DNA of 64,000 nucleotides from the NCBI GenBank assembly GCA_045540275.1, contig JAZQGX010000235.1, positions 7,610 through 71,609 of the forward strand. The letters run 5' to 3'. Below the pieces are notes generated by a model. That model worked only from the letters and a program-made list of their open reading frames with translations, was not told the DNA's origin and ran no database searches. The position numbers and the translations under genes are program-made. This document shows positions 5,215-46,962 of this stretch, piece after piece (within the stretch, counting starts at the first letter, position 1; every line of letters begins with the position of its first letter). The DNA is from Kiritimatiellia bacterium. Its GTDB lineage: Bacteria; Verrucomicrobiota; Kiritimatiellia; RFP12; UBA1067.

Positions 5215-7824
5215 TTATTTACTCCTCTTGAATGTTTGCTGCTTGAAACCAAACCTGCTGGACATGCTCTTCATGCCATTTTCACTTGCCTCAAAAACCG
5301 TTGCGCCACTGCTTTGCGCTTCAATTTCTTTCTGATTGTCATCGTTGATTTTATCCAAACGGTCGGGATAGAGATAAGTCAAATCATTTTTCGGTCTGCC
5401 GTGGTAGCGGCAAAGCGGTTCACCTTTGCTAATCCAAGTATTCCCGTCCATTTTCAATGAACCTGACCAGTCGTTGAAAAGACGCATAATGCAGTTTTCA
5501 GAACAATCAAAAACATTATCTCTTACCACGAAGTTTACAGTCGGTGTAGTCGTATCGTAGAGCATCAAATGTGCGGCATTAGGATTCCACCTCGCCTTGT
5601 GTCCCCATCCCTTGCCCGCATTGCGGAAGGTGTTCTTTTCGACGATCACATTTTCGGTGAACGCATCTTTACCCTGCTGCCAAAACTCAAAAGAGTATTC
5701 GCAGTTCCAAACCTGGTTTCCGCGCCATTCGATATTGCGCTGGACTGATCCCATCTCGCTCGATTGGCTGGTCAACGCAGCGTCCCAGCACTCCCAAATG
5801 CGATTATTTTCAACCTTGATGTCCTCTGCGGCCCCCCAGAATTCAATTCCATTGCCGAAGCGGACGCCGTCCCCCTTGTCGTTGATATAGTGGAACCCGC
5901 CGCCAATCCAGAAAATATCGCAATTGCGAATAGCGTAACGCTTTGCCTTCGTTCCGCCAAATCCGTGTGCCGCGCTGTATCGAACCGCAAGTCCATCGAC
6001 GATTACGTCGTGAATGCGGTCATGACACACACCGTGGATTTTTTCGGCAGCTTCCAGCGACTTCCAGCGGCTTGAGGGCTTTTTATCCGATTTAATCCAA
6101 AGCTGCTGTTTTGCCAAATTCCACCAGAAATCTCCTTCCGCCTTGAGTTCGGACTTGCGATTGCACTTGCGTCCGCATCCGTCCTCGCCGTGGTTGAAAA
6201 CCAAATTGCCGATGTCGTACTCGGCATCATCCAGACGGTAGCTCCACAATCCATCGGACTCTTTTTTCCAAATCCAAGGCATGGCACTCAAATCGTAACT
6301 CGGCTGAATGTAGGGTTTTTCATCACCCTCGCCATAGGCGGTATAGACGATGGGCTTGTCAGATGTACCGCTCACGAGCGCCAACTGTCCGCGGTAAACT
6401 CCGCCGCGGCGGAAAAGGAGGCGGGAGCCAGGATCAAGCACGGCGCGATTTGCGCGCTCAAGCGTCTTCCAAGCCTTTTCGGGAGAACGTCCGTCATTGA
6501 AATCGTTTCCATTCTTGGAATCCACATAGAAATCACCCCTCACCGAAGCAATGCGCTCTTCGAATATCCAACTTGGAGCATGGGGACCGAGCTTGGAACC
6601 GTGAATCATATTCTGCTGCACCACAAGACGTTTGGGCCCTTTCAAATTATTAAAGAGCAGAACTTCGCCGGAAGGCGGACAAACATAGTCCCCAAGACCT
6701 ATTAGAATACGCGCAGGACAGGTCACGCGCGTAGCCAAATGGGAAAGAGCCATATAATCAAGCGCTTTCGACCAACCCGGCTGCCAACCGCCCAGCCGCT
6801 TGAATTTTGAATATCCTGCAAAATCAGAACTCCACGGAATAGTCACATCGGTAAGAGAGACCTGTTTGTCGAGAGCAGCCAGACCGATAGCCTGGTATCC
6901 GCCCATTGAACCTCCGGTTGTAACCATATCCTTTCCGTTCCAATACGGGTGAGACTTAGCCCACCGCATCGCCATCAAACCTCGCATCAGCATTTTGCAA
7001 TAATCGGTATTCTCCGGCTTTCCGCGGGTATTGCGGAAACAGAAATTCTTGCACAAATTCGTCTGAAGATTGGAGTAGTATGCGTCCTTTTCACGCGGTT
7101 CTTCACCCTGTCGCGTGATGGCCACCTCAATGCGGCCGCCATTTCGCTTTACGGCGGGCAAATGGATGCCGGTCCGGCCGAATCCGTAACCAGTTACGCA
7201 AATTTTCAGCGGCAGCGACTTGAGCGGCATATTTGTAGGCCATGCGGCGACACCTGTTGCATTGTGTTTTCCGTCAGGCATCGGAATGCTGAACTTTACA
7301 TAAGCAACATGCTTCTCGTTTGATGGCAGCTCCTCGACCTTCGCATTGCAAGGAGCCTTGTTGACCTCATCGACCCGTGCGTCCCAAAATGCGTTAAAGT
7401 CTTCTGGAATAGGCCAGGCTTCAATTTTGTTGACCTCGGCACCAGCACTGCCGTCCCATGAAACGGAACGCTTCCCATTACCGATGCTCTCCCATTTTTT
7501 AGGATCCTTGGAGCTTCTTACCCGGACAACCAAATGCACGAAGCCGGGTTTTTCAATTTTAGTGACGACTTTCAACGGCTGTGTGCTGTCGGCCTCGCCG
7601 CTTTCTTTAATTCCGTCGTCACCGGTACGCTCCCAAACCAAGGTCCTGCCGGGAACCGCCGCACAACCGGCATCGCGATCAACCAGCCGAAGGGTGAAAA
7701 TGATGGGCTGTCCGCAAGCATATAACATCGGATTGGAATCAGTTCCCCCGACAAAAGCAAGATCCTCGGCTACTGCAAATAAAGGCAACATCAAAGCTGC
7801 CAAGCAAAATTTTATAGTTTTCAT
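5215..7824 (-). CDS. Secreted fusion of CE7-like acetyl xylan esterase and right-handed beta-helix domain
   Basis: Signal peptide; GGSMGG nucleophile elbow, GLGDYVCPP, terminal H; then FYVDSKNGNDFNDGRSPEKAWKTL beta-helix start and GNGIEFW repeats. Confidence 0.8.
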   Translation of the reverse strand: MKTIKFCLAALMLPLFAVAEDLAFVGGTDSNPMLYACGQPIIFTLRLVDRDAGCAAVPGRTLVWERTGDDGIKESGEADSTQPLKVVTKIEKPGFVHLVVRVRSSKDPKKWESIGNGKRSVSWDGSAGAEVNKIEAWPIPEDFNAFWDARVDEVNKAPCNAKVEELPSNEKHVAYVKFSIPMPDGKHNATGVAAWPTNMPLKSLPLKICVTGYGFGRTGIHLPAVKRNGGRIEVAITRQGEEPREKDAYYSNLQTNLCKNFCFRNTRGKPENTDYCKMLMRGLMAMRWAKSHPYWNGKDMVTTGGSMGGYQAIGLAALDKQVSLTDVTIPWSSDFAGYSKFKRLGGWQPGWSKALDYMALSHLATRVTCPARILIGLGDYVCPPSGEVLLFNNLKGPKRLVVQQNMIHGSKLGPHAPSWIFEERIASVRGDFYVDSKNGNDFNDGRSPEKAWKTLERANRAVLDPGSRLLFRRGGVYRGQLALVSGTSDKPIVYTAYGEGDEKPYIQPSYDLSAMPWIWKKESDGLWSYRLDDAEYDIGNLVFNHGEDGCGRKCNRKSELKAEGDFWWNLAKQQLWIKSDKKPSSRWKSLEAAEKIHGVCHDRIHDVIVDGLAVRYSAAHGFGGTKAKRYAIRNCDIFWIGGGFHYINDKGDGVRFGNGIEFWGAAEDIKVENNRIWECWDAALTSQSSEMGSVQRNIEWRGNQVWNCEYSFEFWQQGKDAFTENVIVEKNTFRNAGKGWGHKARWNPNAAHLMLYDTTTPTVNFVVRDNVFDCSENCIMRLFNDWSGSLKMDGNTWISKGEPLCRYHGRPKNDLTYLYPDRLDKINDDNQKEIEAQSSGATVFEASENGMKSMSSRFGFKQQTFKRSK

Positions 7825-7830
7825 GAAATG

Positions 7831-7859
7831 ATTTTACCAAATAGCTTTTCTTTTTGCAA
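7831..7859 (-). promoter_or_regulatory. Sigma70-type promoter (TTGCAA-17-TAAAAT, extended -10 TGn)
   Basis: Reverse complement of 7854-7859 is TTGCAA and of 7831-7836 is TAAAAT; 17-nt spacer; ATG only 6 nt downstream. Confidence 0.65.
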
Positions 7860-7987
7860 AAATGATATGTCAACTTTCTTCAATTTCTTGCAATCTGGCC
7901 CCCTTCCCACGCACATACCATGCGGCATGCGGGGATGTTCGCGCTCTGTATCAGTCTAATCTTCTACCTCAGGCTCTCGCGCCTTCC

Positions 7988-9199
7988 CTACCCGATTTGT
8001 ACCAGCTTTATTTTGCCGATATCATCGGCCTTGCAATCTGGAACATCACACGCCAGATAATCCGCGCTCCACCCATGCCCAGTGCCATTCTCATCAACAC
8101 GTTCAATAAGCACCTCGACCTGAGTACCGAGATGCCTTCGCGCAAAACAATCTTTTTTCTCGTCGCGCAGTGCAATTAAACGGGAAACCCGCTCCTTCTT
8201 TTCGCGGTCAGGCACCTGATCTGAAAATTCGGCGGCCGGGGTTCCCGGACGCTTGCTGTAGGGGAAAATGTGCAAATTCGAAAACGGATAATCGTTGATA
8301 AGCGAAAATGTATTTTCAAACTGTTCCCGGCTTTCTCCGGGGAAACCCACAATCACATCAGCACCCAACCCGAACAGAGGAAGTCTTTCGCACACATTAT
8401 CAAGCATCTTGCGCAAATACGCCACATCGTAATGACGCCCCATGCGGCGAAGGATTTCATCATCGCCACTCTGCAGCGGCAAATGCAGAAACGGACAGAG
8501 CTTATCGCAATTAGACATCAACTCGCCAATCTCTCGCTCGAAAGAACCGGGCTCGAGCGAACTCAAGCGTACACGGAAATCTCCGGGCAGTGCGGTCAAT
8601 GCATCAAGCAGATCGGGAAGTCGCCGTTTTCTGTCTTCATATAATGCAAGATTGCACCCGACCACCACAATCTCGTGATACCCTGCCTCGACCAGCCACG
8701 ACGCCTCTTGCAAACAATCCTCAAATTTGCGGCTGCGGGGCAGACCTCTGGCAATCGGAACAAAACAATACGAGCAGAAATTCGAACACCCATCTTGGAC
8801 CTTGAGAAGCGCACGGTGCAGCTCTGTGCCCGGCGAAGCAACTCCGCATTTGCCGGATGCAGGGAATCTCTTGAGTATCTCGCCGGTCACATCAGCGTCA
8901 TCACCTGGCTTGAATATCAAATCAACGCCGACGGCATGAAGCCTTTGAGAATCAGCGGCTTTTGCCGCACATCCGGAGAACACCAGAAAAGTGTCGGGAT
9001 GTCTGCGCTTGACGGTGACGGCCAGGCGCAAGCACTCCGCCTCGGCAGCATGCGTAACCGCACATGAGTGCAAAACCGTAACGTCAGTCGCCTCCCCGAA
9101 CGGCAAAACATCAAAACCGCCGGTCAGAAGACTTTTCATTCGTCGATCGGTTTCTGCACGGTTCAAGCGGCAGCCGAAAGTCTTGAAGCTTACGGTCAT
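7988..9199 (-). CDS. mtaB: tRNA methylthiotransferase, MiaB/MtaB family (radical SAM)
   Basis: TFGCRLN, HSCAVT, SGC; KVQDGCSNFCSYC CxxxCxxC motif; HIFPYSKRPGT; C-terminal TRAM. Confidence 0.88.
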   Translation of the reverse strand: MTVSFKTFGCRLNRAETDRRMKSLLTGGFDVLPFGEATDVTVLHSCAVTHAAEAECLRLAVTVKRRHPDTFLVFSGCAAKAADSQRLHAVGVDLIFKPGDDADVTGEILKRFPASGKCGVASPGTELHRALLKVQDGCSNFCSYCFVPIARGLPRSRKFEDCLQEASWLVEAGYHEIVVVGCNLALYEDRKRRLPDLLDALTALPGDFRVRLSSLEPGSFEREIGELMSNCDKLCPFLHLPLQSGDDEILRRMGRHYDVAYLRKMLDNVCERLPLFGLGADVIVGFPGESREQFENTFSLINDYPFSNLHIFPYSKRPGTPAAEFSDQVPDREKKERVSRLIALRDEKKDCFARRHLGTQVEVLIERVDENGTGHGWSADYLACDVPDCKADDIGKIKLVQIG

Positions 9200-9201
9200 T
9201 G

Positions 9202-10611
9202 TCAGATTTTCTTGATCTTCTGCCCGTCCTTTGAGTCGCGGACTTCCCAGCCAAGTCGAGCTAGTTCGTCACGCAGTCGATCCGACTCAGCCCAATTCAG
9301 TCCGGCGCGAGCTTCGGCGCGGGCGTCAAGCAAGGCCTTAATTTCAGCAGGCATCGCTACATCTGTCGAAACACGTCCGAAAAAGACAACTCCCAAGACC
9401 TTATCCATCATGCGGAATACGTCAAGTACGGCTACAGCAATATTCGCGCGGCAATCGGATTGAGCCAGATACACATTGGCTGCTCGCACCAACCCGAACA
9501 TTGCGGCAAAGGCCTCAGGAATATTCAAGTCGTCATTGACCGCCGCGGTAAACGCATCAAGTGCATTTTTCGCCCAATCGACATCCGACAGCGGAGCTGG
9601 CGGTACATCACCTGCGATAGCTTCAAGCGCACCGAGACACTCGTCCAGACGCGCAAGCGAGGTGCGCGCTGCGGCAAGCGCATCAAATGTAAAGTTGAGC
9701 GGCTGCCGATAATGGGCATTGACCAAAACATAACGGATTTCTCGCCCGGTATACCCTTTCTCTAGCAGATCGCGCAAAGTGAAAAAGTTTCCGAGTGATT
9801 TAGACATCTTCTCGCCGTTTACGCGCAGATGGGCGCAATGCATCCAGAAATTGACAAAGGGTTTTCCGGTTGCAGCTTCGGCCTGGGCTATTTCATTCTC
9901 GTGATGCGGAAAAAGATTGTCAATGCCGCCAGTGTGCAAATCGAAGGTTTCACCGAGATACTTCATCGACATCGCGGAGCATTCGATATGCCAGCCAGGA
10001 CGGCCTTTGCCCCACGGAGATTCCCATGCCACGGGACCGTCGGACTCTTCCCATGCCTTCCAAAGCGCAAAATCGCCGACATTTTCCTTGTCGTATTCGT
10101 CTGAGGCACAACGAGCGCCAGTTCTTTGATTGTCGAAATCGATGTGGGCAAGCTTACCATAGCCCGGGAACTTGGTCACCGCAAAATAAACAGAACCGTC
10201 CTCAGAACGATATGCCACCCCCTTGTCGATCAGCTGCTGAACAAGTGCAATCATCTCGGGGATGTGATCGGTTGCCGCCGGATACACCTCCGCAGGTTCT
10301 ATGTTCAGTGTTGTCAAATCTGCAAAAAAAGCATCTTTGTAGGTCTTGGTATACTCGGTCAGCGGCTTGCCTGACGCATTTGCTCCGCGAATGGTCTTGT
10401 CGTCGACATCGGTCAGGTTCATCACCTGCTTAACCTTCATGCCGCCGAATTCCAATGCGCGACGAAGCACATCTTCAAAAGTATATGCGCGGAAATTGCC
10501 GATATGGGCGAAATTGTAAACCGTCGGTCCGCAGGTGTACATCCCGACCTTACCTTCGGACAACGGTGTGAACTGTTCTTTGCGATGATTGAGACTGTTG
10601 TATACTTGCAT
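9202..10611 (-). CDS. cysS: Cysteine--tRNA ligase
   Basis: CGPTVYNFAHIGN, GRPGWHIECSAM, FPHHENE, KMSKS. Confidence 0.98.
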   Translation of the reverse strand: MQVYNSLNHRKEQFTPLSEGKVGMYTCGPTVYNFAHIGNFRAYTFEDVLRRALEFGGMKVKQVMNLTDVDDKTIRGANASGKPLTEYTKTYKDAFFADLTTLNIEPAEVYPAATDHIPEMIALVQQLIDKGVAYRSEDGSVYFAVTKFPGYGKLAHIDFDNQRTGARCASDEYDKENVGDFALWKAWEESDGPVAWESPWGKGRPGWHIECSAMSMKYLGETFDLHTGGIDNLFPHHENEIAQAEAATGKPFVNFWMHCAHLRVNGEKMSKSLGNFFTLRDLLEKGYTGREIRYVLVNAHYRQPLNFTFDALAAARTSLARLDECLGALEAIAGDVPPAPLSDVDWAKNALDAFTAAVNDDLNIPEAFAAMFGLVRAANVYLAQSDCRANIAVAVLDVFRMMDKVLGVVFFGRVSTDVAMPAEIKALLDARAEARAGLNWAESDRLRDELARLGWEVRDSKDGQKIKKI

Positions 10612-10631
10612 AATTAACCTCCAGCAAAAAT

Positions 10632-11135
10632 TCAGTGCAATGGGAATGCCATCGCTATTTCAGGACAGGTGAAAGGATTTGCGTGCTTGGTACATCCCAT
10701 GCATCCGATGTAAAGCTTGTGCATCACCTGGGTTTTGGGAATCACAACAAATCCCATCGACTTGAAAAACTCAGGAGCGAATGTCAGCACAATAACCTGC
10801 GACGCATTGAACCGCCGCACCGAATCAATCACGCGGGAAACCAGCGCCTCTCCGATTTTCTTTCGGCGATACTCCTTTGCGACTGCAACCGACTGTATCT
10901 CAACCGCGGCGCCCTCGGGGTTCCCGATCTCCGGAAAAATCTTCCATGAGGCACATCCGATGAGCCGCCCCTCTTCATTTTCGGCAATCACAAAGCGATC
11001 GATGTTTTCAACGATGTCACCGATAGATCGCGGAACCAGCATATCGCTGTGAGCACGAATCATCTCAAAGATTGGCTTTGCATCGCCCAAAACCGCCGTT
11101 CGAACCGAACAAGCTACCCGTTCTTCATCGCTCAT
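10632..11135 (-). CDS. GNAT N-acetyltransferase (short ArgA-like amino-acid acetyltransferase)
   Basis: AEIQS-like VEIQSVAV, RRKKIG acetyl-CoA motif, VLTFAPEFF, C-terminal CxxC...C; ATGA overlap at 11132-11135. Confidence 0.8.
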   Translation of the reverse strand: MSDEERVACSVRTAVLGDAKPIFEMIRAHSDMLVPRSIGDIVENIDRFVIAENEEGRLIGCASWKIFPEIGNPEGAAVEIQSVAVAKEYRRKKIGEALVSRVIDSVRRFNASQVIVLTFAPEFFKSMGFVVIPKTQVMHKLYIGCMGCTKHANPFTCPEIAMAFPLH

Positions 11136-26700: not shown

Positions 26701-27957
26701 TTATTTGCCAGAACAATTCTCTTCAGATAAAAACTCCGTCACCGACTCGAATCTGGCCGTTCGCGGAAACATGTTGAAAAGTTTTGCACTCGCCGGACGG
26801 TATCCGCCTTTCGCAAGCAACTTCGCATCTCGCGCCAGCGTGGCGGGATCGCATGAAACGTAAATCACCTTTGCAAAACGGTGTTTGACCACCGACTCGA
26901 TGCATCCTGAATCGGCACCGCCCCGCGGCGGATCCATAATGACGGTGGTTCGAGTCGCGTCCCGTATCCACTTTTGGTGAATCGCTCCGCCCCCCGTCAG
27001 AGAAGCGCGGATAAAACGCGCAGCAACGCCGCAGGCGGCAGCGTTCTTTCGCGCCAGTTCAATCGCATCACCGCAAGATTCTATTCCGGTGGACGTTAGC
27101 GCTCCGCATTGTGCGCAGAGAATGCCAAATACTCCCACCCCGCAAAAAAGGTCAAGCACATGCGGGGTTTTGGACCGACCGTCCGAATACAAATCTGCCA
27201 CATGCCCGGCGACCGCCGTACTCACCTCGCGATTGATCTGATAGAAACCGCTGGCTTTTACCTCAAGCATTCCGCAGAGCGCGCACTCACGCAAAAGCGG
27301 CTCGCATTTAGTTTCGAAAACATCGGTATCCGCATTCCAGAAGCTCTTCCTGCCGTGGCGAGAAATGCGTATAACGCTTTCACCGGCCCCCGAAGCTGAA
27401 CGAAACACCACATCGTCACCATTTTTGAGGGAGACAAACGCCTTGCTTGATCGAAAACGAGACAACAGCGAATTGACTTCAGGATTCGCCAATGGACATT
27501 TAGGAGTGTCGACGACCAGATGCGAAGACTCTTGCCGGTAACCTAGCAAACCGTCGGAAAAATGGAGTGTTATCTTGTTGCGATAATGCAATACAGCGGG
27601 GGAATTTTCCGGTGGAAGAAAAATATCAACATCACCGAAAATGCGATTGAGAAAATCGGCGTACTGTTCCTGCTTGGCAGCAAGTTCAGCTTCGGGAGTC
27701 AAATGCGCATATACGCAGCCAGGTGCAGGCCTGTAGCTTATCAGGCAGTTGCAGTCAATTCGATCTGGAGAGGCCTCTTCGATTTGCAACAGCTCTGCTT
27801 CTGCGAAATTTTTGCGCATGCGCGTCACTCTGACGCGCACCTTCTCTCCTTTTAACACGCCAGGGATGAAAACCACCACGCCGTCGATGCGGGCGAGCCC
27901 TTTACCGCCGTAGACAAGCTTCTCAATGGAACATGAAAACTCATCGCCGCTTTTCAT
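26701..27957 (-). CDS. TRAM-domain RNA (uracil-5)-methyltransferase, RlmD/TrmA family
   Basis: N-terminal TRAM (IEKLVYGGKG), FYQIN, LDLFCGVG, DPPRGG, YVSCDPATLARD, MFPRT. Confidence 0.88.
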   Translation of the reverse strand: MKSGDEFSCSIEKLVYGGKGLARIDGVVVFIPGVLKGEKVRVRVTRMRKNFAEAELLQIEEASPDRIDCNCLISYRPAPGCVYAHLTPEAELAAKQEQYADFLNRIFGDVDIFLPPENSPAVLHYRNKITLHFSDGLLGYRQESSHLVVDTPKCPLANPEVNSLLSRFRSSKAFVSLKNGDDVVFRSASGAGESVIRISRHGRKSFWNADTDVFETKCEPLLRECALCGMLEVKASGFYQINREVSTAVAGHVADLYSDGRSKTPHVLDLFCGVGVFGILCAQCGALTSTGIESCGDAIELARKNAAACGVAARFIRASLTGGGAIHQKWIRDATRTTVIMDPPRGGADSGCIESVVKHRFAKVIYVSCDPATLARDAKLLAKGGYRPASAKLFNMFPRTARFESVTEFLSEENCSGK

Positions 27958-28811
27958 CGCTCAGCCTCTTTTGACGCATTGAGCAGCATTTCCACCTCGG
28001 CGCCCCATTTGCTCTCATCAGGGGTCTCCAGCACTAGAGGAATCCCCCTGAATCTGACATCCTTGGCGATTGCGAGGAAAAGCTCCGCGCCGATTTTTCC
28101 GAATCCGATGGATTGATGCCGATCTTTTCGAGAGGCAAAATCAACCATCGAATCATTAAGATGCATACCGCGCAGATATTTCAAACCGATAAGACGGTCG
28201 AATTCGTCTACTGCTGCCTGCCAACCTGATTTTTCATGTACCGCAATACCGGCACCGAAACTGTGCATGGTGTCAATGCAGACTCCGATCCGGGTCTTGT
28301 CGCCGACACCATCAATTATAGCGGCAAGCTCGCTGAACGTCGAGCCGAGATTGCCGCCGGAGCCGGCGGTATTCTCCAACACGATAGAGACCCCGGAAGT
28401 TGCAGCCAATGCGCGGTTTATTGAATCGGAAACCAATTCACACGCGGCCTCCGTCGAAATCAACTTGAGAGAACTGCCGGGATGGAGGTTCAAACGGTCA
28501 AGACCGAGACTGGCACAAATTTCAAGTTCGCAAACCAGTGAATCGAGCGAACGATTGCGCTTGTCCACGTCGGGATTGGCGAGATTGATGAGGTAGCCGG
28601 CATGAGGCAGCACACATGATGCGTTATACCCAAACGATTCCATGGCCTCGGCAAATCGTTCCGCTTCCGAAGCGGTTGGTATCTTCGCCTGCCACTGCCG
28701 CTGATTCTTGACAAACATTCCAAATCCGGTCGCGCCGAACGAATGGGCGTTGAGCGGAGCGTTGAAAACTCCACCGGAAATAGAAACATGCGGTCCGATA
28801 AAAAAATCCAT
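27954..28811 (-). CDS. nfo: Endonuclease IV (AP endonuclease)
   Basis: GPHVS, PHAGYLINL, HPGS, LENTAG, CIDTMH, HLNDS, DRH, LETP. Confidence 0.95.
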   Translation of the reverse strand: MDFFIGPHVSISGGVFNAPLNAHSFGATGFGMFVKNQRQWQAKIPTASEAERFAEAMESFGYNASCVLPHAGYLINLANPDVDKRNRSLDSLVCELEICASLGLDRLNLHPGSSLKLISTEAACELVSDSINRALAATSGVSIVLENTAGSGGNLGSTFSELAAIIDGVGDKTRIGVCIDTMHSFGAGIAVHEKSGWQAAVDEFDRLIGLKYLRGMHLNDSMVDFASRKDRHQSIGFGKIGAELFLAIAKDVRFRGIPLVLETPDESKWGAEVEMLLNASKEAER

Positions 28812-32426: not shown

Positions 32427-32519
32427 TGCAACTCCTCGTCTCAAAACCGACATTTCGAAGAATTTTATTTCCAAAATAAAAAGCAGTCAAGCAATATTAC
32501 GAGACGGACGATTTTATTA

Positions 32520-32549
32520 TTGCCAAGTATTTAAGGGAAAGTGTATAAT
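32520..32549 (+). promoter_or_regulatory. Sigma70-type promoter of the three-gene operon (TTGCCA-18-TATAAT)
   Basis: TTGCCA at 32520-32525 and TATAAT at 32544-32549 in the AT-rich divergent intergenic region. Confidence 0.6.
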
Positions 32550-32603
32550 TTTTTAATGTCAAAACGAGGTATTCATCACAACAACAAAAAAAGGGGGTAC
32601 AAC

Positions 32604-33704
32604 GTGAATTCCTCACGCATCAAAGCATCATTACTATTGGTAGTATTTGCGGCACTGGCCGTTTTCTCTGGATTGGCGTTCATCGACAATATTGACATCA
32701 TTGTCAAATATTGGAAAGATTTCAATGCTGTAAGTGGCGACTCAGCCAAAATGGCCAAGGAATACACCGGCATAATTCCTTGTTTGGATTGGACCACGGT
32801 CGACTACTCTGCAGTCACGACCTTCATTCCTTTCTTCGGTTTTCTCTTTGCGGCGATTGGATGCCTTCGTGTTATTTTCAAAAAGAAGCTGCATTCAAAT
32901 GACTGCTTCCCGTATTTCCCTTACACCGATCTTCTCAATATTTCGCTGGGCTTGATCGGTACCTTGTGGGGAATCATCGTTATCGGCTACTACGACATGT
33001 CCACCATCGAGATCGACATTCTCATTGAATGTCTGCACACTGCGTTGTTCTCGACGTTGATGGCTGTTGTCTGGGTTTATCTGATTGACCATCCGATCAT
33101 CCGTCCTTTGATGCGTAGCTGCATCAGCACCGCACAGATCGAGACCGACGATGACGAAAAAGACGTTATCGAGATCATCGAAGATTTGCGTCGCAGCGCA
33201 TGCGGCATCCGTAGCGCTTGGGAAGATGAACGCATCAATCTTGAAGGACTTGTCACCCAGATGAAGTCCGCCAAAGATTCGATGAGCGAATTTGACCGTG
33301 CCACCAAGCAAGCCGGGATCGCGATTGACAAGACACTTGCATCGGCAGTGCAGGCGATCACCGCCCGCCTTTCCGATGTGGCGGAACAGATCGAAGCGAA
33401 CCGTCGCGCTTCAGAGGAACAGGCGGCCGAGCGCAATGCTCGTCTGAACGAGGCCTATGACAAGCGCATCACCGATCTTAACAATGCTTTTGACAAGCGC
33501 ATTGCGGTAATTGCCGAAGAGAACAGCAAGATTGCCGAAATCTGCGAAAAGCTTGAAGCGCAATCCAAGCGATTGCTTGATGAAAACGTACAGCTCAAAG
33601 CCGATCTCAAAACTTCCGAAGAAGCGGGACGCGAACTGAAGAGACGCGCCGAGAAAGCGGAAGACAACCTCAACACCATCAAAAAGGTCATAGCCGGTGA
33701 ATAA
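32604..33704 (+). CDS. MotA/TolQ/ExbB-like proton-channel membrane protein with long C-terminal coiled-coil tail
   Basis: About 4 TMs; SLGLIGTLWGII and HTALFSTLMAV resemble the conserved LGxxGT / ALxxT pore helices; about 200-aa helical tail; start GTG 32604 (AAGGGGG RBS) or ATG 32556. Confidence 0.62.
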   Translation: MNSSRIKASLLLVVFAALAVFSGLAFIDNIDIIVKYWKDFNAVSGDSAKMAKEYTGIIPCLDWTTVDYSAVTTFIPFFGFLFAAIGCLRVIFKKKLHSNDCFPYFPYTDLLNISLGLIGTLWGIIVIGYYDMSTIEIDILIECLHTALFSTLMAVVWVYLIDHPIIRPLMRSCISTAQIETDDDEKDVIEIIEDLRRSACGIRSAWEDERINLEGLVTQMKSAKDSMSEFDRATKQAGIAIDKTLASAVQAITARLSDVAEQIEANRRASEEQAAERNARLNEAYDKRITDLNNAFDKRIAVIAEENSKIAEICEKLEAQSKRLLDENVQLKADLKTSEEAGRELKRRAEKAEDNLNTIKKVIAGE

Positions 33705-34446
33705 GAAGCAAGCGCTTCTGAAGCAGCTGTCGCGGAAGGGACCGTCAGCGCTCACTGTATCAGTGAATGATTTGAACGGACTGCTGCTCCAGATCTCATT
33801 GGCAATCATGATGATTTTCGTGATGGCCTACTTCATCTTCCGCACGCAAAAGAATGAAAAGATTCTTGAGATTCAACGCCAGAAACTGGAATTGGCGGTT
33901 GATACTGTCGATAAAGAGTATAAAGTGCGCTATGGTCTGAACGTGCTCACTTCGGGAATAACCCGTCGTGAGGGCTCTACCAACGTTTACTTTGACGCAT
34001 CATCGATCATTACCAACGGAGCGATGACGCAAAACCATGCCATCCGTGCTGCCTTCATATCTGCCTCGCAGAATGGGCAAGCCGACTTCGCCGACAAACT
34101 GGCGTTGCGTAAAGGATGGTGGGATAAGGTCATGAAGGCGGCAGCACTTGACAGCGACATCACGCAAGAGAACACCCAGTGGCTAAATGACACAGTGGAC
34201 ACCTGCATCGCTGATTATGTCGATTCCGTGCATGCTATCCAGTATGGATGCGCAACCATGCTGCAGAAATATTGGAGCGAGCATCCTCAACAGGTCAAAG
34301 ACGAAGAGATCGAAAAGATTCTCACCAAATTTAATACTGCGGACGAGAAGACAAAAATGCTCTTGATTACCGACCTTGCGGAGGCGTTGCGTCGCTACAG
34401 TATTGAAACATTGTCCAAACTGGCAGGAGCGGAGTTGCTGCAATGA
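33697..34446 (+). CDS. Single-TM MotB/ExbD/ZorB-like partner without a recognisable OmpA domain
   Basis: SVNDLNGLLLQISLAIMMIFVMAYFIF has Asp just before one N-terminal TM; overlaps upstream stop by 8 nt. Confidence 0.5.
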   Translation: MNKKQALLKQLSRKGPSALTVSVNDLNGLLLQISLAIMMIFVMAYFIFRTQKNEKILEIQRQKLELAVDTVDKEYKVRYGLNVLTSGITRREGSTNVYFDASSIITNGAMTQNHAIRAAFISASQNGQADFADKLALRKGWWDKVMKAAALDSDITQENTQWLNDTVDTCIADYVDSVHAIQYGCATMLQKYWSEHPQQVKDEEIEKILTKFNTADEKTKMLLITDLAEALRRYSIETLSKLAGAELLQ

Positions 34447-36494
34447 AAAAGAACACGATAATCTCCATGTGTGCGGTGCTCAGCGCCGCCACAACTTTCG
34501 CCAGCGAACTTGTGCAGGCGGAAAATCTAAAAAAAAGCTCATCGCATCTGGCGGCGCAATTGGTTGTTGACAGGCTTCGTGACGATGTTGCAACCAACAA
34601 CAATGCAGTCGCCGATTTGGCAAAAGCGATGCTTTCCGACCCTGTTCGATACCGTAAGACGGGCGAAGCAAAGATACTTTTGGAACCGGAATTTTCCGAA
34701 AGTATAAAAAACACCTTCCGTAAGCGTGTTGACGACCTTCTTGACCGGATGGCGAAGCCCAAGACTCGGCAAGAGTATTTTGGCGCGGAGTTTCTGTCAA
34801 AAGCGGAAGACCCGGGGAATGCGTTCTTGAAAAAGGTTGCGGCCGATTCGTATCAGAACGCATTTAAGGAAGCCCGTAAAAAGGCTTGTGAAGAGCAGGC
34901 GAAACGTCTTTCGTCGGCGATTCGCCCTACCGAGGAAGAAGTTGACAGTTCCGATCGTGGAAGCTTGGTTCATCGAATTGCCGGTAAACTCATCGAGGCG
35001 AAAAAGAACGCCATTTTCGATGAGAACGTCGGTTATATTCTGAACACGATTGCAGGCCCCGTAGTTGTCGAGGCTTACAATCAGCGTGATATGCAGCGCG
35101 AGTCATATATGACGATGCCGGTCAACACCTACACTCCTGAATTTCTCGTCACCAACATGTTGAAAAACATCAAAGGTGAAGTATCTCGAATCCAGCGTGA
35201 ACGGAAGGCTGAGGGGCAGTACGGGTACGGGCTATTCCCGTCCACGACCAATAATTCACTGGTCGCTAAGATGGCAAAGAATCGTGCGATTAAAAATCTG
35301 ACGGATGCGCTGTCAAACGTATCGACAAATATTTTCGACCGCAAATGGGCGGAAAAGGAAATTTTGACGAATATTGACAAGCATCGCAATCGAGGAGATT
35401 CGGAAAATGCCTTCCGGGTGCTTAACAGCAAAAAGATGGAAGATCTGGCGCTGGCAGAGATCCGCAGGAGGGTTCCGAAAAACGAGAAAGCACGTTTTGA
35501 GGAGTATTTTGCAAAAGACGGTTCACAGAATTCGAGATATACGAATTTGCGTTGGAATCGCGCTGGCAATGAATTTTGGCCGCTGGTAGTGCAGGTTCGC
35601 AACTCGTGTGCGAGCAATCAGATGTCAAAATTCTACAAGAAACTGCAGAACAAGGATTGGTATCCCGATTATGATGTTGTGGATGCGATCAGTCTCAGTT
35701 CCGATTTGTCCCGCGAATGGGCACTTTGGCGCAAATACAAGGAGTTTTCGGAATTCTCTGACCTTGAGAAGAAGCAACCGATTATCGGTGAAACTTCGGC
35801 AATGGTCAACAATGCGATGAGGTACGCGTTGGGAGCTGGTGAACGCGCTCGTTCATGGCAGCACGGTATTGTGCGTAATATCTATCATTCGATTCGCTCT
35901 TACTACGAATCGACCGGAAGTCGACCTTCAATTGAGACGGTTGTAGCGGATTATGAAAAGCGCGTCACCGATCAATGGCTCAAGAATATAGCCAAGGCGA
36001 TGGAGGGGTACGAGAAAGCAATTCCAAAATACGAAAAGCTTTTCAACAGCACTCGTGAGCAGATAGAATTGCGTGCCAAGGCGATTGTCAGCATGTCAGG
36101 ATCCTCGAACACGGCAAAGGGAGATGGCTCAGATGATGGTGATGTCATTCCTTGTTCAGCCACGATTACATTTGACATCAAAGATGACAAGGTGATAGAA
36201 GCATCTATTCGCTACAATGGAGAAACGGTTTCGACGGTGAAGGCAAACCTAGAGAAGAAGGCGTTCAAGCGAGAACTTAACAATTTCTCGCGCAGCGTTT
36301 CTGATCAGGTATTGAACCGAATCCGCGAAGCGGCAAAGAACGATCGACTCAATGTCCGGTTGAATCTTGTTGTTCGCGACAACCTCGTATACTATGGAGC
36401 TGTAATTGATGTATATGACAGCATCCGTTTTGGGGTTGAGAAATTAGGTCCTAGGATCAACTCATTCCGCACCTTTGGTGCGCCTCGCGATTGA
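34443..36494 (+). CDS. Secreted alpha-helical protein with a C-terminal ExbD/TolR-like domain
   Basis: Sec signal MKKNTIISMCAVLSAATTFA; ATGA overlap; C-terminus ITFDI...IRYNGETV...VRLNLVVRDNLVYYGAVIDVYDSIRFG. Confidence 0.45.
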   Translation: MKKNTIISMCAVLSAATTFASELVQAENLKKSSSHLAAQLVVDRLRDDVATNNNAVADLAKAMLSDPVRYRKTGEAKILLEPEFSESIKNTFRKRVDDLLDRMAKPKTRQEYFGAEFLSKAEDPGNAFLKKVAADSYQNAFKEARKKACEEQAKRLSSAIRPTEEEVDSSDRGSLVHRIAGKLIEAKKNAIFDENVGYILNTIAGPVVVEAYNQRDMQRESYMTMPVNTYTPEFLVTNMLKNIKGEVSRIQRERKAEGQYGYGLFPSTTNNSLVAKMAKNRAIKNLTDALSNVSTNIFDRKWAEKEILTNIDKHRNRGDSENAFRVLNSKKMEDLALAEIRRRVPKNEKARFEEYFAKDGSQNSRYTNLRWNRAGNEFWPLVVQVRNSCASNQMSKFYKKLQNKDWYPDYDVVDAISLSSDLSREWALWRKYKEFSEFSDLEKKQPIIGETSAMVNNAMRYALGAGERARSWQHGIVRNIYHSIRSYYESTGSRPSIETVVADYEKRVTDQWLKNIAKAMEGYEKAIPKYEKLFNSTREQIELRAKAIVSMSGSSNTAKGDGSDDGDVIPCSATITFDIKDDKVIEASIRYNGETVSTVKANLEKKAFKRELNNFSRSVSDQVLNRIREAAKNDRLNVRLNLVVRDNLVYYGAVIDVYDSIRFGVEKLGPRINSFRTFGAPRD

Positions 36495-36504
36495 TTCATG
36501 TACC

Positions 36505-36538
36505 AAAAAAGGGACGCCCAGCCGGCGTCCCTTTTTTT
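36505..36538 (+). terminator. Intrinsic terminator
   Basis: A6-GGGACGCC-cagcc-GGCGTCCC-T7 right after the operon. Confidence 0.9.
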
Positions 36539-36626
36539 AGGGTCTGTCCCCCTAATGTATTCTAGGGTCTGTCCCCTAAATGAAAATGGTCGCCAAACCT
36601 GCGCCTATTTTGAGGGTATGTCCCTA
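36538..36626 (+). repeat. Cluster of REP-like TAGGGTCTGTCCCC motifs (2 exact, 1 degenerate)
   Basis: Copies at 36538-36551 and 36563-36576; degenerate GAGGGTATGTCCCT at 36612-36625. Confidence 0.85.
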
Positions 36627-36723
36627 GAACGACTAAAAATTATCGTTGAAAAAGGTTGTCGCAAAATCTCGTGTATTAGGGTATAATCATTACGATTTTC
36701 AAACACAATCTAGGAGAATGACC

Positions 36724-38142
36724 ATGGCTGCGAATTGCAAATGTTCCTCAGGTAAGAAAAAGTGTTCAAATGGCAAATGCGAATGCAAGGCGGATAAAAA
36801 ATACGCTTTTGTAGCTCCCATTCAACTCTTGCGCGAGATGAAGGCAAAAGCCGACAAAAGCTCACCGATTTTTGCAGTTGCCCTTGAACGGGACAATGGC
36901 TATGTTACCCGTTACGACTTGCCGATTCCTTCCGGCATGGGAAAAAAGGAAATCGTTAGAAAACTTTGTGAGAGAATCGTAAAGTTCTTGCTTTGGTCTT
37001 CGGGCGGGTACAAAATCACCATCGCCGGCCCCAGTGCCATTTGCAAAAAAATCAAAGCAGACTACCAAATTGGTGGTGCACGTGACTTTGACGCAAAATT
37101 CTTCAAGAAAGTTTATCATCAGGATTTGACTGTAAAGGTTGTCAAACTTGACAAAATGCCGAAAGCTAACGAACGTGCGCTGAAGGTCAATGCCAAGAGT
37201 AACGGATGTCGTCTCGGATTTGATTTGGGTGCAAGTGATTTTAAAATCAGCGCAGTTAAGAATGGCAAGGTAACCTTCTCTGATGAATTTCCCTGGGATC
37301 CCAGAAATCAAGCAGACCCCGACTATCATCTGAACAAACTAAACGAAGGACTTAAGAAGGCAGCCGCCACTTTGCCCAAGGTTAATGCCATCGGTGGAAG
37401 TACCGCCGGTGTTGTAATTGACAACTACTTGCGCTCTGCCTCACTCCTTCGAGCTGTCGAGGAAAAAAACAATCAGCGCTTTGAAGAGGGACAGTCCATT
37501 TTCTACCGTCTGCAAAAAATTTGGAATGTACCGGTTGAGGTTGCCAATGATGGTGATGTTACCGCTCTTTGCGGAATGCTGACAATGAACAAAAAAGGAA
37601 TTCTCGGCGTTGCCATGGGCTCAAGCGAAGCGGCCGGCTTTATCAACACCGACGGGTGTCTTACAGGTCGGCTGACGGAACTGGCCTTCGCTCCGGTTGA
37701 CTTAAGCGATCAGGCGCCAACGGATGAATGGTCTGGGGATACCGGGGTCGGAGCAATGTACTTCTCGCAACAGGCCGTCAACTTCCTCGCTTGCAATGAA
37801 GGCTTCAAATTCCCAAAGACCATGCCCCTTCCCGAACGGCTTAAAGTAGTCCAGAAGGCCATGTCAGAAAATGATCCTCGTGCGCTGCGCGTCTATCAAC
37901 GGATAGGATTGAATCTCGCGCATACCGTACCTTGGTATCGCGAATTCTACGACTTCAACAGTCTGATGATTCTGGGACGTGTCACAACTGGCATGGGCGG
38001 TGTGATTATTCTTGAAACCGCGCGTTTGATGCTGAAAGACATCTATCCAGAAACTGCTGCCGAGGTAGAGATTTTCATGCCAGATGAAAAAGCTCGCCGC
38101 CTTGGCCAATCAGTGGCCGCAGCATCGCTCCCCGAGCTGTAA
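36724..38142 (+). CDS. ROK-family sugar kinase/regulator-like protein
   Basis: GFDLGASD, VANDGD, GVAMGSSEAAG, GRLTELAF; AGGAG RBS. Confidence 0.8.
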   Translation: MAANCKCSSGKKKCSNGKCECKADKKYAFVAPIQLLREMKAKADKSSPIFAVALERDNGYVTRYDLPIPSGMGKKEIVRKLCERIVKFLLWSSGGYKITIAGPSAICKKIKADYQIGGARDFDAKFFKKVYHQDLTVKVVKLDKMPKANERALKVNAKSNGCRLGFDLGASDFKISAVKNGKVTFSDEFPWDPRNQADPDYHLNKLNEGLKKAAATLPKVNAIGGSTAGVVIDNYLRSASLLRAVEEKNNQRFEEGQSIFYRLQKIWNVPVEVANDGDVTALCGMLTMNKKGILGVAMGSSEAAGFINTDGCLTGRLTELAFAPVDLSDQAPTDEWSGDTGVGAMYFSQQAVNFLACNEGFKFPKTMPLPERLKVVQKAMSENDPRALRVYQRIGLNLAHTVPWYREFYDFNSLMILGRVTTGMGGVIILETARLMLKDIYPETAAEVEIFMPDEKARRLGQSVAAASLPEL

Positions 38143-46200: not shown

Positions 46201-46962
46201 TCAACAGCGGAAATGAGCTTCTATTTCAGACGCAAACACGGATAAGTCATCATAGGTTGATTCAGAATAGATATCGAAGTCGGTGGGCTGAGCATTGACG
46301 ATAAACAGCTTACCACCGCTTTTAAGCGTCAAATCAGGAAGACCTGCTGCGGGGAAAACGCGCAACGAGGTGCCTAAAACAAGTAGGATATCAGCTCTGG
46401 ATGCTAGCACTATCGCGGATCGATAGGCTTGCTCCGGCAGTGCTTCTCCGAAGAAGGTGTTATCAGGCTTGAATATGCCTCCACATTCGCATTGCGGAAT
46501 ATATTTTTCGCCAAGGGCCTCAATACCTCCGTTAGCGTCGATAAGTTGCAAAATGCGATCAAAATCGATTGATCTTGCGCATTTTCGGCAGCTGTGAACG
46601 ATTGGAGAACCATGGATTTCGCAAACATCATTTGATCCTGCCCGTTGGTGGAGCATATCAATATTTTGCGTTATTATTCCTTTTAGGATTCCGACATCCT
46701 GTAAAACTTTCAATGCTTTATGCACTGGGCCTGGCGTAAAAGCGTGGAGATTGTATACGAGCTTCTTCGCTGCCCGATAATAAATGGACGGGTCACGGTC
46801 AAACCACGCAATGTCAAAAATCCGTTCTGCGTCAACATTGGAACTGGAATAAAGGCCACCGGCACCTCTGAAATCGGGAATACCGCACAAGGTACTGATG
46901 CCGGCACCGGTCAGGGCTACGGCATGGGAAGAAGTGGCAAGCGCATTAATTAGACTTTTCAA
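46201..46962 (-). CDS. cobB: NAD-dependent protein deacylase (sirtuin)
   Basis: TGAGISTLCGIPDFRG, TQNIDMLH, IHGS, CxxC...CxC, FGE, GTSL, VN. Confidence 0.93.
   Translation of the reverse strand: MKSLINALATSSHAVALTGAGISTLCGIPDFRGAGGLYSSSNVDAERIFDIAWFDRDPSIYYRAAKKLVYNLHAFTPGPVHKALKVLQDVGILKGIITQNIDMLHQRAGSNDVCEIHGSPIVHSCRKCARSIDFDRILQLIDANGGIEALGEKYIPQCECGGIFKPDNTFFGEALPEQAYRSAIVLASRADILLVLGTSLRVFPAAGLPDLTLKSGGKLFIVNAQPTDFDIYSESTYDDLSVFASEIEAHFRC

Follow-up and report, generated by a model that had tools for sequence, protein, structure and literature searches.

Within a stretch of 64,000 nucleotides (nt) from a Kiritimatiellia bacterium (assembly GCA_045540275.1, contig JAZQGX010000235.1; hereafter the window), we analysed an operon of three genes, A, B and C, which an earlier note, made from the letters alone, had singled out as a stand-alone ion motor of undescribed type. 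The three-gene operon is real, with a promoter-like site, overlapping genes and a strong terminator. We propose with moderate confidence that its products form an ion-powered inner-membrane machine of the MotA/ExbB/TolQ/ZorA class, of a subtype not described before. As part of this motor reading, work at the envelope or the outer membrane is the function that we favour, more tentatively than the motor itself, over a Zorya-like defence system and over a scaffold that is no motor. The features concerned are as follows, with positions counted along the window (aa, amino acids; TM, transmembrane).

32520..32549, + strand: sigma-70-like promoter site TTGCCA-18 nt-TATAAT, 11 of 12 matches, a consensus match only
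32591..32597, + strand: Shine-Dalgarno-like AAGGGGG, 6 nt 5' of GTG 32604
32604..33704, + strand: gene A, 366 aa, putative distant MotA/ExbB/TolQ/ZorA-superfamily membrane subunit with a coiled-coil tail
32541..33704, + strand: alternative form of gene A from an upstream GTG at 32541, 387 aa
32946..33074, + strand: last two predicted TM helices of A, residues 115-157 (GLIGTLWGI ... CLHTALFST), which match Pfam MotA_ExbB and TolQ
33129..33701, + strand: cytoplasmic coiled-coil-like tail of A, residues ~176-366, variable in length, with a conserved end RAEKAE..L..I
33697..34446, + strand: gene B, 249 aa, with a basic N-terminus, one TM helix and an all-helical periplasmic domain
33769..33840, + strand: acidic residue D25 and TM segment of B, residues 25-48, with L31, Q32, A36, F41 and A44 invariant in 52 sequences
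34443..36494, + strand: gene C, 683 aa, with a signal-peptide-like N-terminus, a helical domain of ~530 aa, a short linker and a C-terminal beta-alpha domain
34443..34502, + strand: N-terminus of C, residues 1-20, MKKN and a hydrophobic stretch ending in TFA, read from the sequence, of low model confidence (predicted local distance difference test, pLDDT)
36144..36476, + strand: C-terminal domain of C, residues 568-678, beta-beta-beta-alpha-beta-alpha-beta with the LVVRDNLVYYGAV motif, from the model and alignments
36511..36538, + strand: intrinsic terminator GGGACGCC-CAGCC-GGCGTCCC then TTTTTTT, an 8-bp GC hairpin (36511-36531) followed by T7

The three open reading frames (ORFs) lie head to tail on the + strand, with overlaps of 8 nt between A and B and 4 nt between B and C, and the promoter, overlaps and terminator that the earlier note had described were all recovered. 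The terminator has a folding energy of -25 kcal/mol (z -6.0), which 0 of 200 shuffles equalled; it was absent from the list of the pattern scan that gave the promoter-like site. Sigma-70-like sites are frequent in this DNA (10 found vs 4.7 +/- 2.1 in shuffles). Read from its first GTG, gene A would be the frame 32541-33704. Because the -10 box falls within that 387-aa frame, AAGGGGG stands 6 nt upstream of GTG 32604 and the identical database protein has 366 aa, we corrected the start to GTG 32604, from which all residues of A are counted. Chance ORFs were considered and rejected on the strength of 522 relatives of A, 400 clusters of C and confident models.

The membrane subunits A and B and the predicted ion site

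As read from the alignment, A begins with a basic N-terminus and runs through TM1, a conserved periplasmic loop of ~45 residues (W36, G56, W63, D67, S69), TM2, a short cytoplasmic loop carrying a FPFF..D..LN motif, TM3 (GLIGTLWGIIVIGY) and TM4 (CLHTALFSTLMAVVWV) into the helical tail. The helices LGLIGTLWG and ALFSTL, which the earlier note had pointed out, are present, and GLIGTLWGI and HTALFST are invariant or near-invariant across 59 sequences. Between positions 140 and 155, 12 of the 16 residues are of this kind, Thr/Ser positions among them, and an invariant H145-T146 pair lies beside T120, S150 and T151. The tail that follows CLHTALFST ranges from 77 to 276 residues among relatives; its proposed coiled-coil nature agrees with the matches obtained, which are weak and of coiled-coil type.

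The profile of full-length A found mostly apolipoproteins and other coiled coils among PDB sequences; therefore the TM core was used alone, and matches to the tail were treated as compositional. Pfam MotA_ExbB (PF01618) aligns with TM3-TM4 at 14.1 bits (E 0.041) in the whole protein and at 15.9 bits (E 0.011) in the TM core alone, the cut-off being 22.9 in both cases. With E<=0.1 as the limit, the same model matches the TM core in 59 of 59 relatives (best 1.2e-6), and one relative has a precomputed PF01618 match. When the TM-core profile was compared with PDB sequences, four of the five matches at E<=10 were TolQ (E 0.13-0.15), in alignments that rest on GLxGTVWGI and ALIAT, and hhalign against 18 canonical ExbB-type proteins of related genomes gave 63% probability (E 6.9e-5, 27 columns). 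PADLOC ZorA2 models match the TM core of the window protein at E 6.8e-5 and reach 21, 11 and 9 of the 59 relatives at E<=0.01. On the tail, the matches of ZorA1 and NCBIfam ZorA_3 have E 1e-4 to 3e-5 and stay far under the cut-offs (23 bits vs 250 for ZorA_3). As judged from its sequence, A is probably a distant protein of the MotA/ExbB/TolQ/ZorA superfamily with four predicted TM helices, where the earlier note had also placed it. Elsewhere the same genome carries five canonical MotA_ExbB and six ExbD genes, none of them on this contig.

B is encoded directly downstream of A, and its basic N-terminus followed by one hydrophobic helix fits the single N-in TM helix expected of B subunits. No match to B was found in Pfam, NCBIfam or PADLOC; the only match at E<=10 among PDB sequences was a histidine kinase (E 0.27), which is not meaningful, and ESM Atlas returned only unnamed clusters, with scores up to 0.91. 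Foldseek gave no PDB match at E<=0.001 for the models of B or C. The model of B (pLDDT 90.3) is all-helical, with a long helix at 23-78 and a helical bundle to residue 243, and the protein is thereby predicted, with confidence, to have a helical periplasmic domain of ~200 aa; with such a domain of its own, B can no longer be called truncated, as had been supposed. An ExbD/TolR-type or OmpA-type periplasmic domain was not found in B, either by Pfam, NCBIfam and PADLOC or in the all-helical model. B is a bitopic protein with a near-invariant TM helix and a periplasmic domain of no known family.

The S-x-x-D-L motif that had been noticed just before the TM helix of B corresponds to S22-V23-N24-D25-L26. 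All 77 relatives have D or E at position 25, and most have D at position 24, which is N here. We compared B by hhalign with 19 ExbD-type proteins, four of which coincide with Pfam ExbD matches in the window's own genome, the others having been chosen by position and motif. The similarity is weak (5.4%); it sets LLQ32ISLAIMMIF on L(M/I)D..F.LL..F, with the invariant Phe in register. The distance to the next charged residue is 17-21 residues from the Gln of B (52 of 52 sequences) and 14-23 residues from the Asp of ExbD (19 of 19). The conserved TM Asp is thus absent from the canonical site of B, Q32 standing in the ExbD Asp column, by the weak alignment, and at its depth. Acidic residue 25 lies 7 residues before Q32, in the first turn of the helix and two turns nearer the cytoplasm. 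Because the weak alignment and the distance measure agree, it seems that the canonical depth holds Gln, with the acidic residue two turns cytoplasm-ward; of the Asp claimed earlier for B, the acidic character is kept and the canonical depth is not. The ion site is predicted to be non-canonical, with Q32 where ExbD, MotB and ZorB have an essential Asp. In the Zorya paper the ZorB-type Asp is described as universally conserved and essential (PMC11946911), and in GldLM the essential protonatable residue, GldL E49, sits on the ring subunit (PMC8986121).

Protein C and its family

C belongs to a new family of helical, putatively exported proteins of 600-850 aa, which have a low-complexity linker and a variable C-terminal module. 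The 683-aa length, the exported-type hydrophobic N-terminus and the helical character given in the earlier note all hold. By eye, the N-terminus reads as a cleavable signal peptide, which would make C a putatively exported protein, and in relatives the hydrophobic stretch, 11-22 residues long, closes with small residues (for example, LSA|GN). A lipoprotein reading was rejected, also by eye, most relatives having no Cys at the end of this stretch. Searches with C gave no matches in Pfam, NCBIfam or PADLOC, no meaningful PDB sequence match and no usable match in ESM Atlas. Its model (pLDDT 89.9) is helical from 12 to 556, followed by a low-confidence linker (555-565) and a beta-alpha domain (568-678).

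The profile of C found 400 clusters at E<=0.001 among 1.84 billion representatives (308 at 1e-10 and 188 at 1e-30), and a Pfam match reaching the curated cut-off was seen in 0 of 28 divergent members. The same layout recurs in distant members: a signal peptide, a helical domain, a linker that is charged or rich in Gly/Pro, and a C-terminal module. This module is usually a VYYG-type domain, and 3 of the 10 inspected end in hydrophobic TM-like segments instead. Some of the distant homologues P0237, P0258, P0244 and P0188 have such TM-like ends in place of the VYYG domain, and P0188 (1377 aa) carries the helical domain of C twice in tandem before a Gly-rich linker. Among related loci, the C-terminal domain occurs in a long form (23) and in a short form of three strands and one helix (49), the beta4-alpha2-beta5 part that bears the VYYG motif being missing in 49 of 72. 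In loci with the long form, B and the A tail are longer as well, and the split may mark two lineages.

A wide fold search with C was filled by matches to the C-terminal domain and barely covered the 530-aa helical domain; therefore, we claim no new fold for the latter. The fold matches of the C-terminal domain are generic, and ExbD and TolR are not among the 50 listed for C, which is an absence from a short list and not an exclusion. The earlier note had likened this C-terminus to the ExbD/TolR periplasmic fold. Its motif RDNLVYYGAVIDVYDSI can be aligned with ADxxVxYGxVVxVMD, the strand-helix unit of ExbD, and hhalign of an 89-sequence alignment of the domain against the 19 ExbD-type proteins gave 3.4% probability (E 0.013) over 66 columns in consistent register. 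The full-length C profile reached 0.1%, and PF02472 had no match in C or anywhere on the window's contig. We lean against ExbD-likeness of the domain, which probably amounts to a resemblance at the level of a motif. As for TonB and TolA transducers, C shares only the linker feature with them, its N-terminus reading, by eye, as a signal peptide and not as a TM anchor, and no TonB_C or TolA Pfam match was found in C or in the 28 divergent members. In a predicted complex of B (49-249) with C (28-683), the interface score ipSAE was 0.00 in both runs, which speaks neither for nor against binding.

Conservation, genomic neighbours and expression

Relatives occur in Kiritimatiellae/Kiritimatiellia, Lentisphaerae/Victivallales and metagenome-assembled genomes labelled "Verrucomicrobia", and the related contigs come mostly from ruminant guts, faeces and digesters. 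The 522 relatives of A were found at E<=0.001 among 8000 candidates scored. A pattern scan of one genome per species (185,579 species) yielded 108 stretches, of which 94 were confirmed and 80 loci were kept; 61 of the 80 have at least 3 kb downstream of A. In these, B adjoins A in 59 and the order A-B-C stands in 58, the remaining three being A alone in the near-identical L036 and L037 and A-B without C in L086 (Victivallales). A search begun from distant C gave the same picture, with B directly upstream and the end of A before B in 10 of 10 loci, four of which belong to another family of the phylum. The operon is stand-alone and probably vertically kept.

Gene order is thus well preserved, and occurrence is patchy. 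Of 41 genomes searched in the order, 6 carry C, among them that of the window; C was not found in four other genomes of the same genus. A is present in 5 of 201 genomes sampled across the class (E<=1e-10), and the distant C query matched at least 22 of 401 genomes sampled across the phylum, a floor that reflects a stricter first look. Orphan copies of A lie in L018 (3128-4474), where a GH4 gene follows, and in L036 and L037 (6995-7900), with TPR proteins and LptE upstream in L036.

A sister clade of two genomes from another family of the class has a weaker match to A (403 aa, E 1e-11 to 1e-13) in loci L135 (G066:C82, 320-5105) and L136 (G041:C149, 1633-3911). A B-like gene of 249-251 aa follows A there (NANDALVQISL), with the Gln kept and an Asp 4 residues before it, and C was not found in either locus. 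In L135, A-B is followed by a 143-aa ORF and by a protein of 777 aa, which has an extended, charged coiled-coil region and a single TM segment and carries an OmpA domain at its C-terminus (E 4.9e-14). That another protein of the operon bears the OmpA-type peptidoglycan-binding domain fits the functional side of the earlier idea of a divided B subunit, and it suggests that the A tail may be held by a partner such as this coiled-coil/TM/OmpA protein.

We scanned 143 downstream and 128 mostly upstream ORFs of related loci, which were sorted into 36 groups at 80% identity of the A core. Lipid A or lipopolysaccharide (LPS) genes lie within 3.5 kb in 5 of the 36 groups, namely, Skp-LpxD, an LpxL-type acyltransferase, LpxK, the Kdo transferase WaaA and LptE, the last beside an orphan A. 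A GT2 gene of ~260 aa stands directly 3' of C in five groups, often overlapping it or less than 25 nt away, and in one group it is followed by a ~550-aa protein, an extracytoplasmic function (ECF) sigma factor and an anti-sigma factor. Three loci have murein amidases in the vicinity; other neighbours are housekeeping genes (obg, rsgA, purE, hisD, aroC, rpoD), and no defence or mobile genes were found among the ORFs scanned. The long-form clade (L007 at 7811-10969, L008, L010, L011 and L017) shows the GT2 gene, the ~550-aa protein of no clear family (weak DUF1570), the ECF sigma factor and a zf-HC2 anti-sigma factor, with Skp, LpxD, an epimerase and RbsD/FucU upstream, and GT2 alone follows C in L002, L013, L015, L023 and L041. 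The TolB N-terminal domain (PF04052) was not found in 41 of 41 genomes of the order, carriers and non-carriers, with a model that is narrow, its control having matched only E. coli and Caulobacter.

In the window, ispF lies upstream of the operon in divergent orientation, and a 498-aa ROK-like gene (36646-38142, + strand) lies 3' of the terminator. A Pfam scan of ~12 kb on each side found purC, purL, ABC transporters, a tRNA methyltransferase and similar genes and, consistent with what had been said of the adjacent genes, no flagellar, TonB, Tol, Zorya or mobile genes. The N-terminus of the ROK-like protein is rich in Cys and Lys (CKCSSGKKKCSNGKCECK); the match to ROK is weak (E 0.0016), and the protein is kept in 4 of 4 same-genus genomes at 65-67% identity. 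Since neither ispF nor A, B or C was found within 1.5 kb of the ROK-like gene in these four genomes, no clean insertion site can be defined. About 4 kb upstream of the operon lie genes for an AP_endonuc_2 TIM-barrel protein and a TRAM/tRNA-U5-methyltransferase (26701-28811, - strand); because the same pair stands directly 3' of C in L055, L063, L066 and L078, part of a wider neighbourhood is kept. A Sir2-family protein of 253 aa (46201-46962, - strand), ~10 kb downstream, is most likely a CobB-type deacetylase rather than a defence gene.

Contigs of three metatranscriptome libraries from one study match parts of A, B and C at >=95% over window positions 32593-36600, and two of them bridge the B/C junction. 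Such contigs show neither strand nor ends. The interval 32450-32588 has no RNA-library contig cover, though it is covered in the DNA run, and gaps of this kind carry no evidential weight.

Mechanism, competing readings and significance

If the operon encodes a motor, A would form a ring around B helices, as in 5:2 motors, and ion flow at the A/B interface would drive relative rotation or a conformational cycle. The helical domain of B, together with C, may pass the work on to the periplasm or the outer envelope, by the logic of ExbBD-TonB, TolQRA and GldLM, while the A tail would serve as a cytoplasmic anchor or regulator. The ion site would be made up of Gln32 and, two turns cytoplasm-ward, D25 of B, together with H145-T146 of A beside T120, S150 and T151. 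From the recurrent neighbours, the most likely target is outer-membrane, LPS or cell-wall homeostasis.

The described motors share parts of this plan. In ExbB-ExbD-TonB and TolQ-TolR-TolA, the order is likewise a channel subunit, a single-pass subunit and a long periplasm-facing protein; A has the GLxGTxWG and ALxxT helices of TolQ and ExbB, and C resembles the TonB and TolA transducers in its conserved N-terminal part, its low-complexity linker (Pro/Glu-rich in many relatives) and its variable C-terminal domain. Unlike ExbB and TolQ, however, A has a tail instead of a large cytoplasmic domain, B resembles ExbD and TolR only by a weak TM pattern, and C has a signal-peptide-like N-terminus in place of a TM anchor and no TonB_C or TolA domain. 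MotAB and PomAB have the same four TM helices in A and the single-pass B downstream, whereas here A has no large TM2-TM3 cytoplasmic torque domain, B has no OmpA-like domain or plug and no flagellar genes are nearby; a paper on MotAB evolution speaks of heterogeneous non-flagellar "generic ion transporters" (PMC12505986). GldLM and PorLM are alike in the way they work only: their axle subunit lacks the canonical Asp and starts its periplasmic part with a helical domain, their ring subunit is extended into the cytoplasm, and periplasmic partners, not peptidoglycan, receive the output (PMC9389320, PMC8986121). For GldL, GldM and PorM we saw no match in sequence or fold; A is predicted to have four TM helices and not two, and no type IX secretion genes are nearby.

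Several points weigh against an envelope motor. A lies under every curated cut-off (14-16 vs 22.9 bits in Pfam; 23 vs 250 for ZorA_3), and B resembles neither ExbD (hhalign 5.4%) nor any solved chain to a significant degree. Gln takes the canonical Asp position; therefore, ion coupling may be lost or different. The patchy occurrence (A in 5 of 201 genomes of the class, C in 6 of 41 of the order) is odd for a core envelope function, and A occurs without B and C in L018, L036 and L037 and with B only in L086. The enrichment of LPS neighbours is modest and comes from related genomes that are not independent, so it is a lead rather than a test, and RNA-library contigs can contain DNA.

A more specific form of the motor reading, which we put forward as doubtful, would make the system a further 5:2-type motor class in which the axle Asp is replaced, with Gln at the canonical depth, the charge moved two turns cytoplasm-ward and a His on the ring. 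The ring would be held by the coiled-coil tail, the B dimer would be the turning shaft and C an exported transducer to outer-membrane or LPS assembly. In the sister clade the ring holder may be the coiled-coil/TM/OmpA protein, and C might serve bacteria in which TolB was not found.

The sub-threshold ZorA models are the top named matches of A (ZorA2 on the TM core, ZorA1 and ZorA_3 on the tail), and with them goes the thought of a Zorya-like anti-phage system, in which a ZorAB-type envelope sensor signals inward by its tail or depolarises through its channel and C acts as a periplasmic sensor or plug. The patchy distribution suits it, as do the single-pass partner encoded directly downstream of A and the build of A itself, in which, as described for ZorA (PMC11946911), a compact TM domain leads into a long helical tail in the cytoplasm. 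However, ZorC, D, E, F and G are lacking, no soluble Zorya effector genes were found within ~12 kb, and neither A nor B matches ZorA or ZorB at curated thresholds; in PADLOC the sub-threshold ZorA2 match of A is set against 0 families for B and C. The A tail has ~190 aa (77-276 in relatives) vs roughly 500 in E. coli ZorA, and its matches, being of coiled-coil type, may be compositional. B has no ZorB peptidoglycan-binding domain and carries Gln at the depth of the Asp that the Zorya paper calls universal; the third protein is putatively exported, and the operon sits outside a defence-island context, its flanks being housekeeping or envelope genes, with no defence or mobile genes among the 143 + 128 neighbours. 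We therefore consider defence an unlikely role.

Equally improbable to us is a degenerate motor relative that neither conducts ions nor rotates and forms a static inner-membrane scaffold or signalling complex holding B and C. The invariant Gln in the canonical Asp column, the great divergence of A from working motors and the want of an anchoring domain in B would be expected of it. Against this, the TM helices are the most conserved parts of A and B, Thr/Ser positions included, which fits a working interface; the acidic residue is kept in 77 of 77 B sequences, and GldLM works without an Asp in its axle (PMC8986121).

The least probable of these readings is the split B subunit of the earlier note, with ORF2 keeping the TM/plug part and the C-terminal domain of ORF3 as the displaced ExbD/TolR periplasmic domain: its motif in register with the ExbD strand-helix unit over 66 hhalign columns, its five strands and two helices in the model and the separate OmpA protein of the sister clade are consistent with it, but as homology it is not supported, given the low hhalign scores (3.4%, E 0.013; 0.1% for full-length C), the missing PF02472 match, the 49 of 72 related loci in which C has only the first half of the domain and the folded periplasmic domain that B is predicted to have.

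The undescribed ion-powered envelope machine, thus, is the reading that we retain. The system matches no described one, as the earlier note had held, and the accessible literature on motor families, on Zorya and on Kiritimatiell* with ExbB/MotA gave no description of such a system in these bacteria. The motor classes described so far are a handful: Mot, Exb, Tol, Agl, Gld and Zor. To our knowledge, MotA/ExbB-type motors are the only known route by which membrane energy reaches the periplasm and the outer membrane in Gram-negative bacteria. Should defence prove to be its role, the system would be a relative of Zorya that lacks cytosolic effectors. If the motor reading is true, the operon would add a new motor class with two partner families of unknown fold relationships, and its non-canonical ion site would bear on which residues coupling really needs. 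The carriers, Kiritimatiellia and Lentisphaeria from digesters and the guts of animals, have envelopes that have been little studied.

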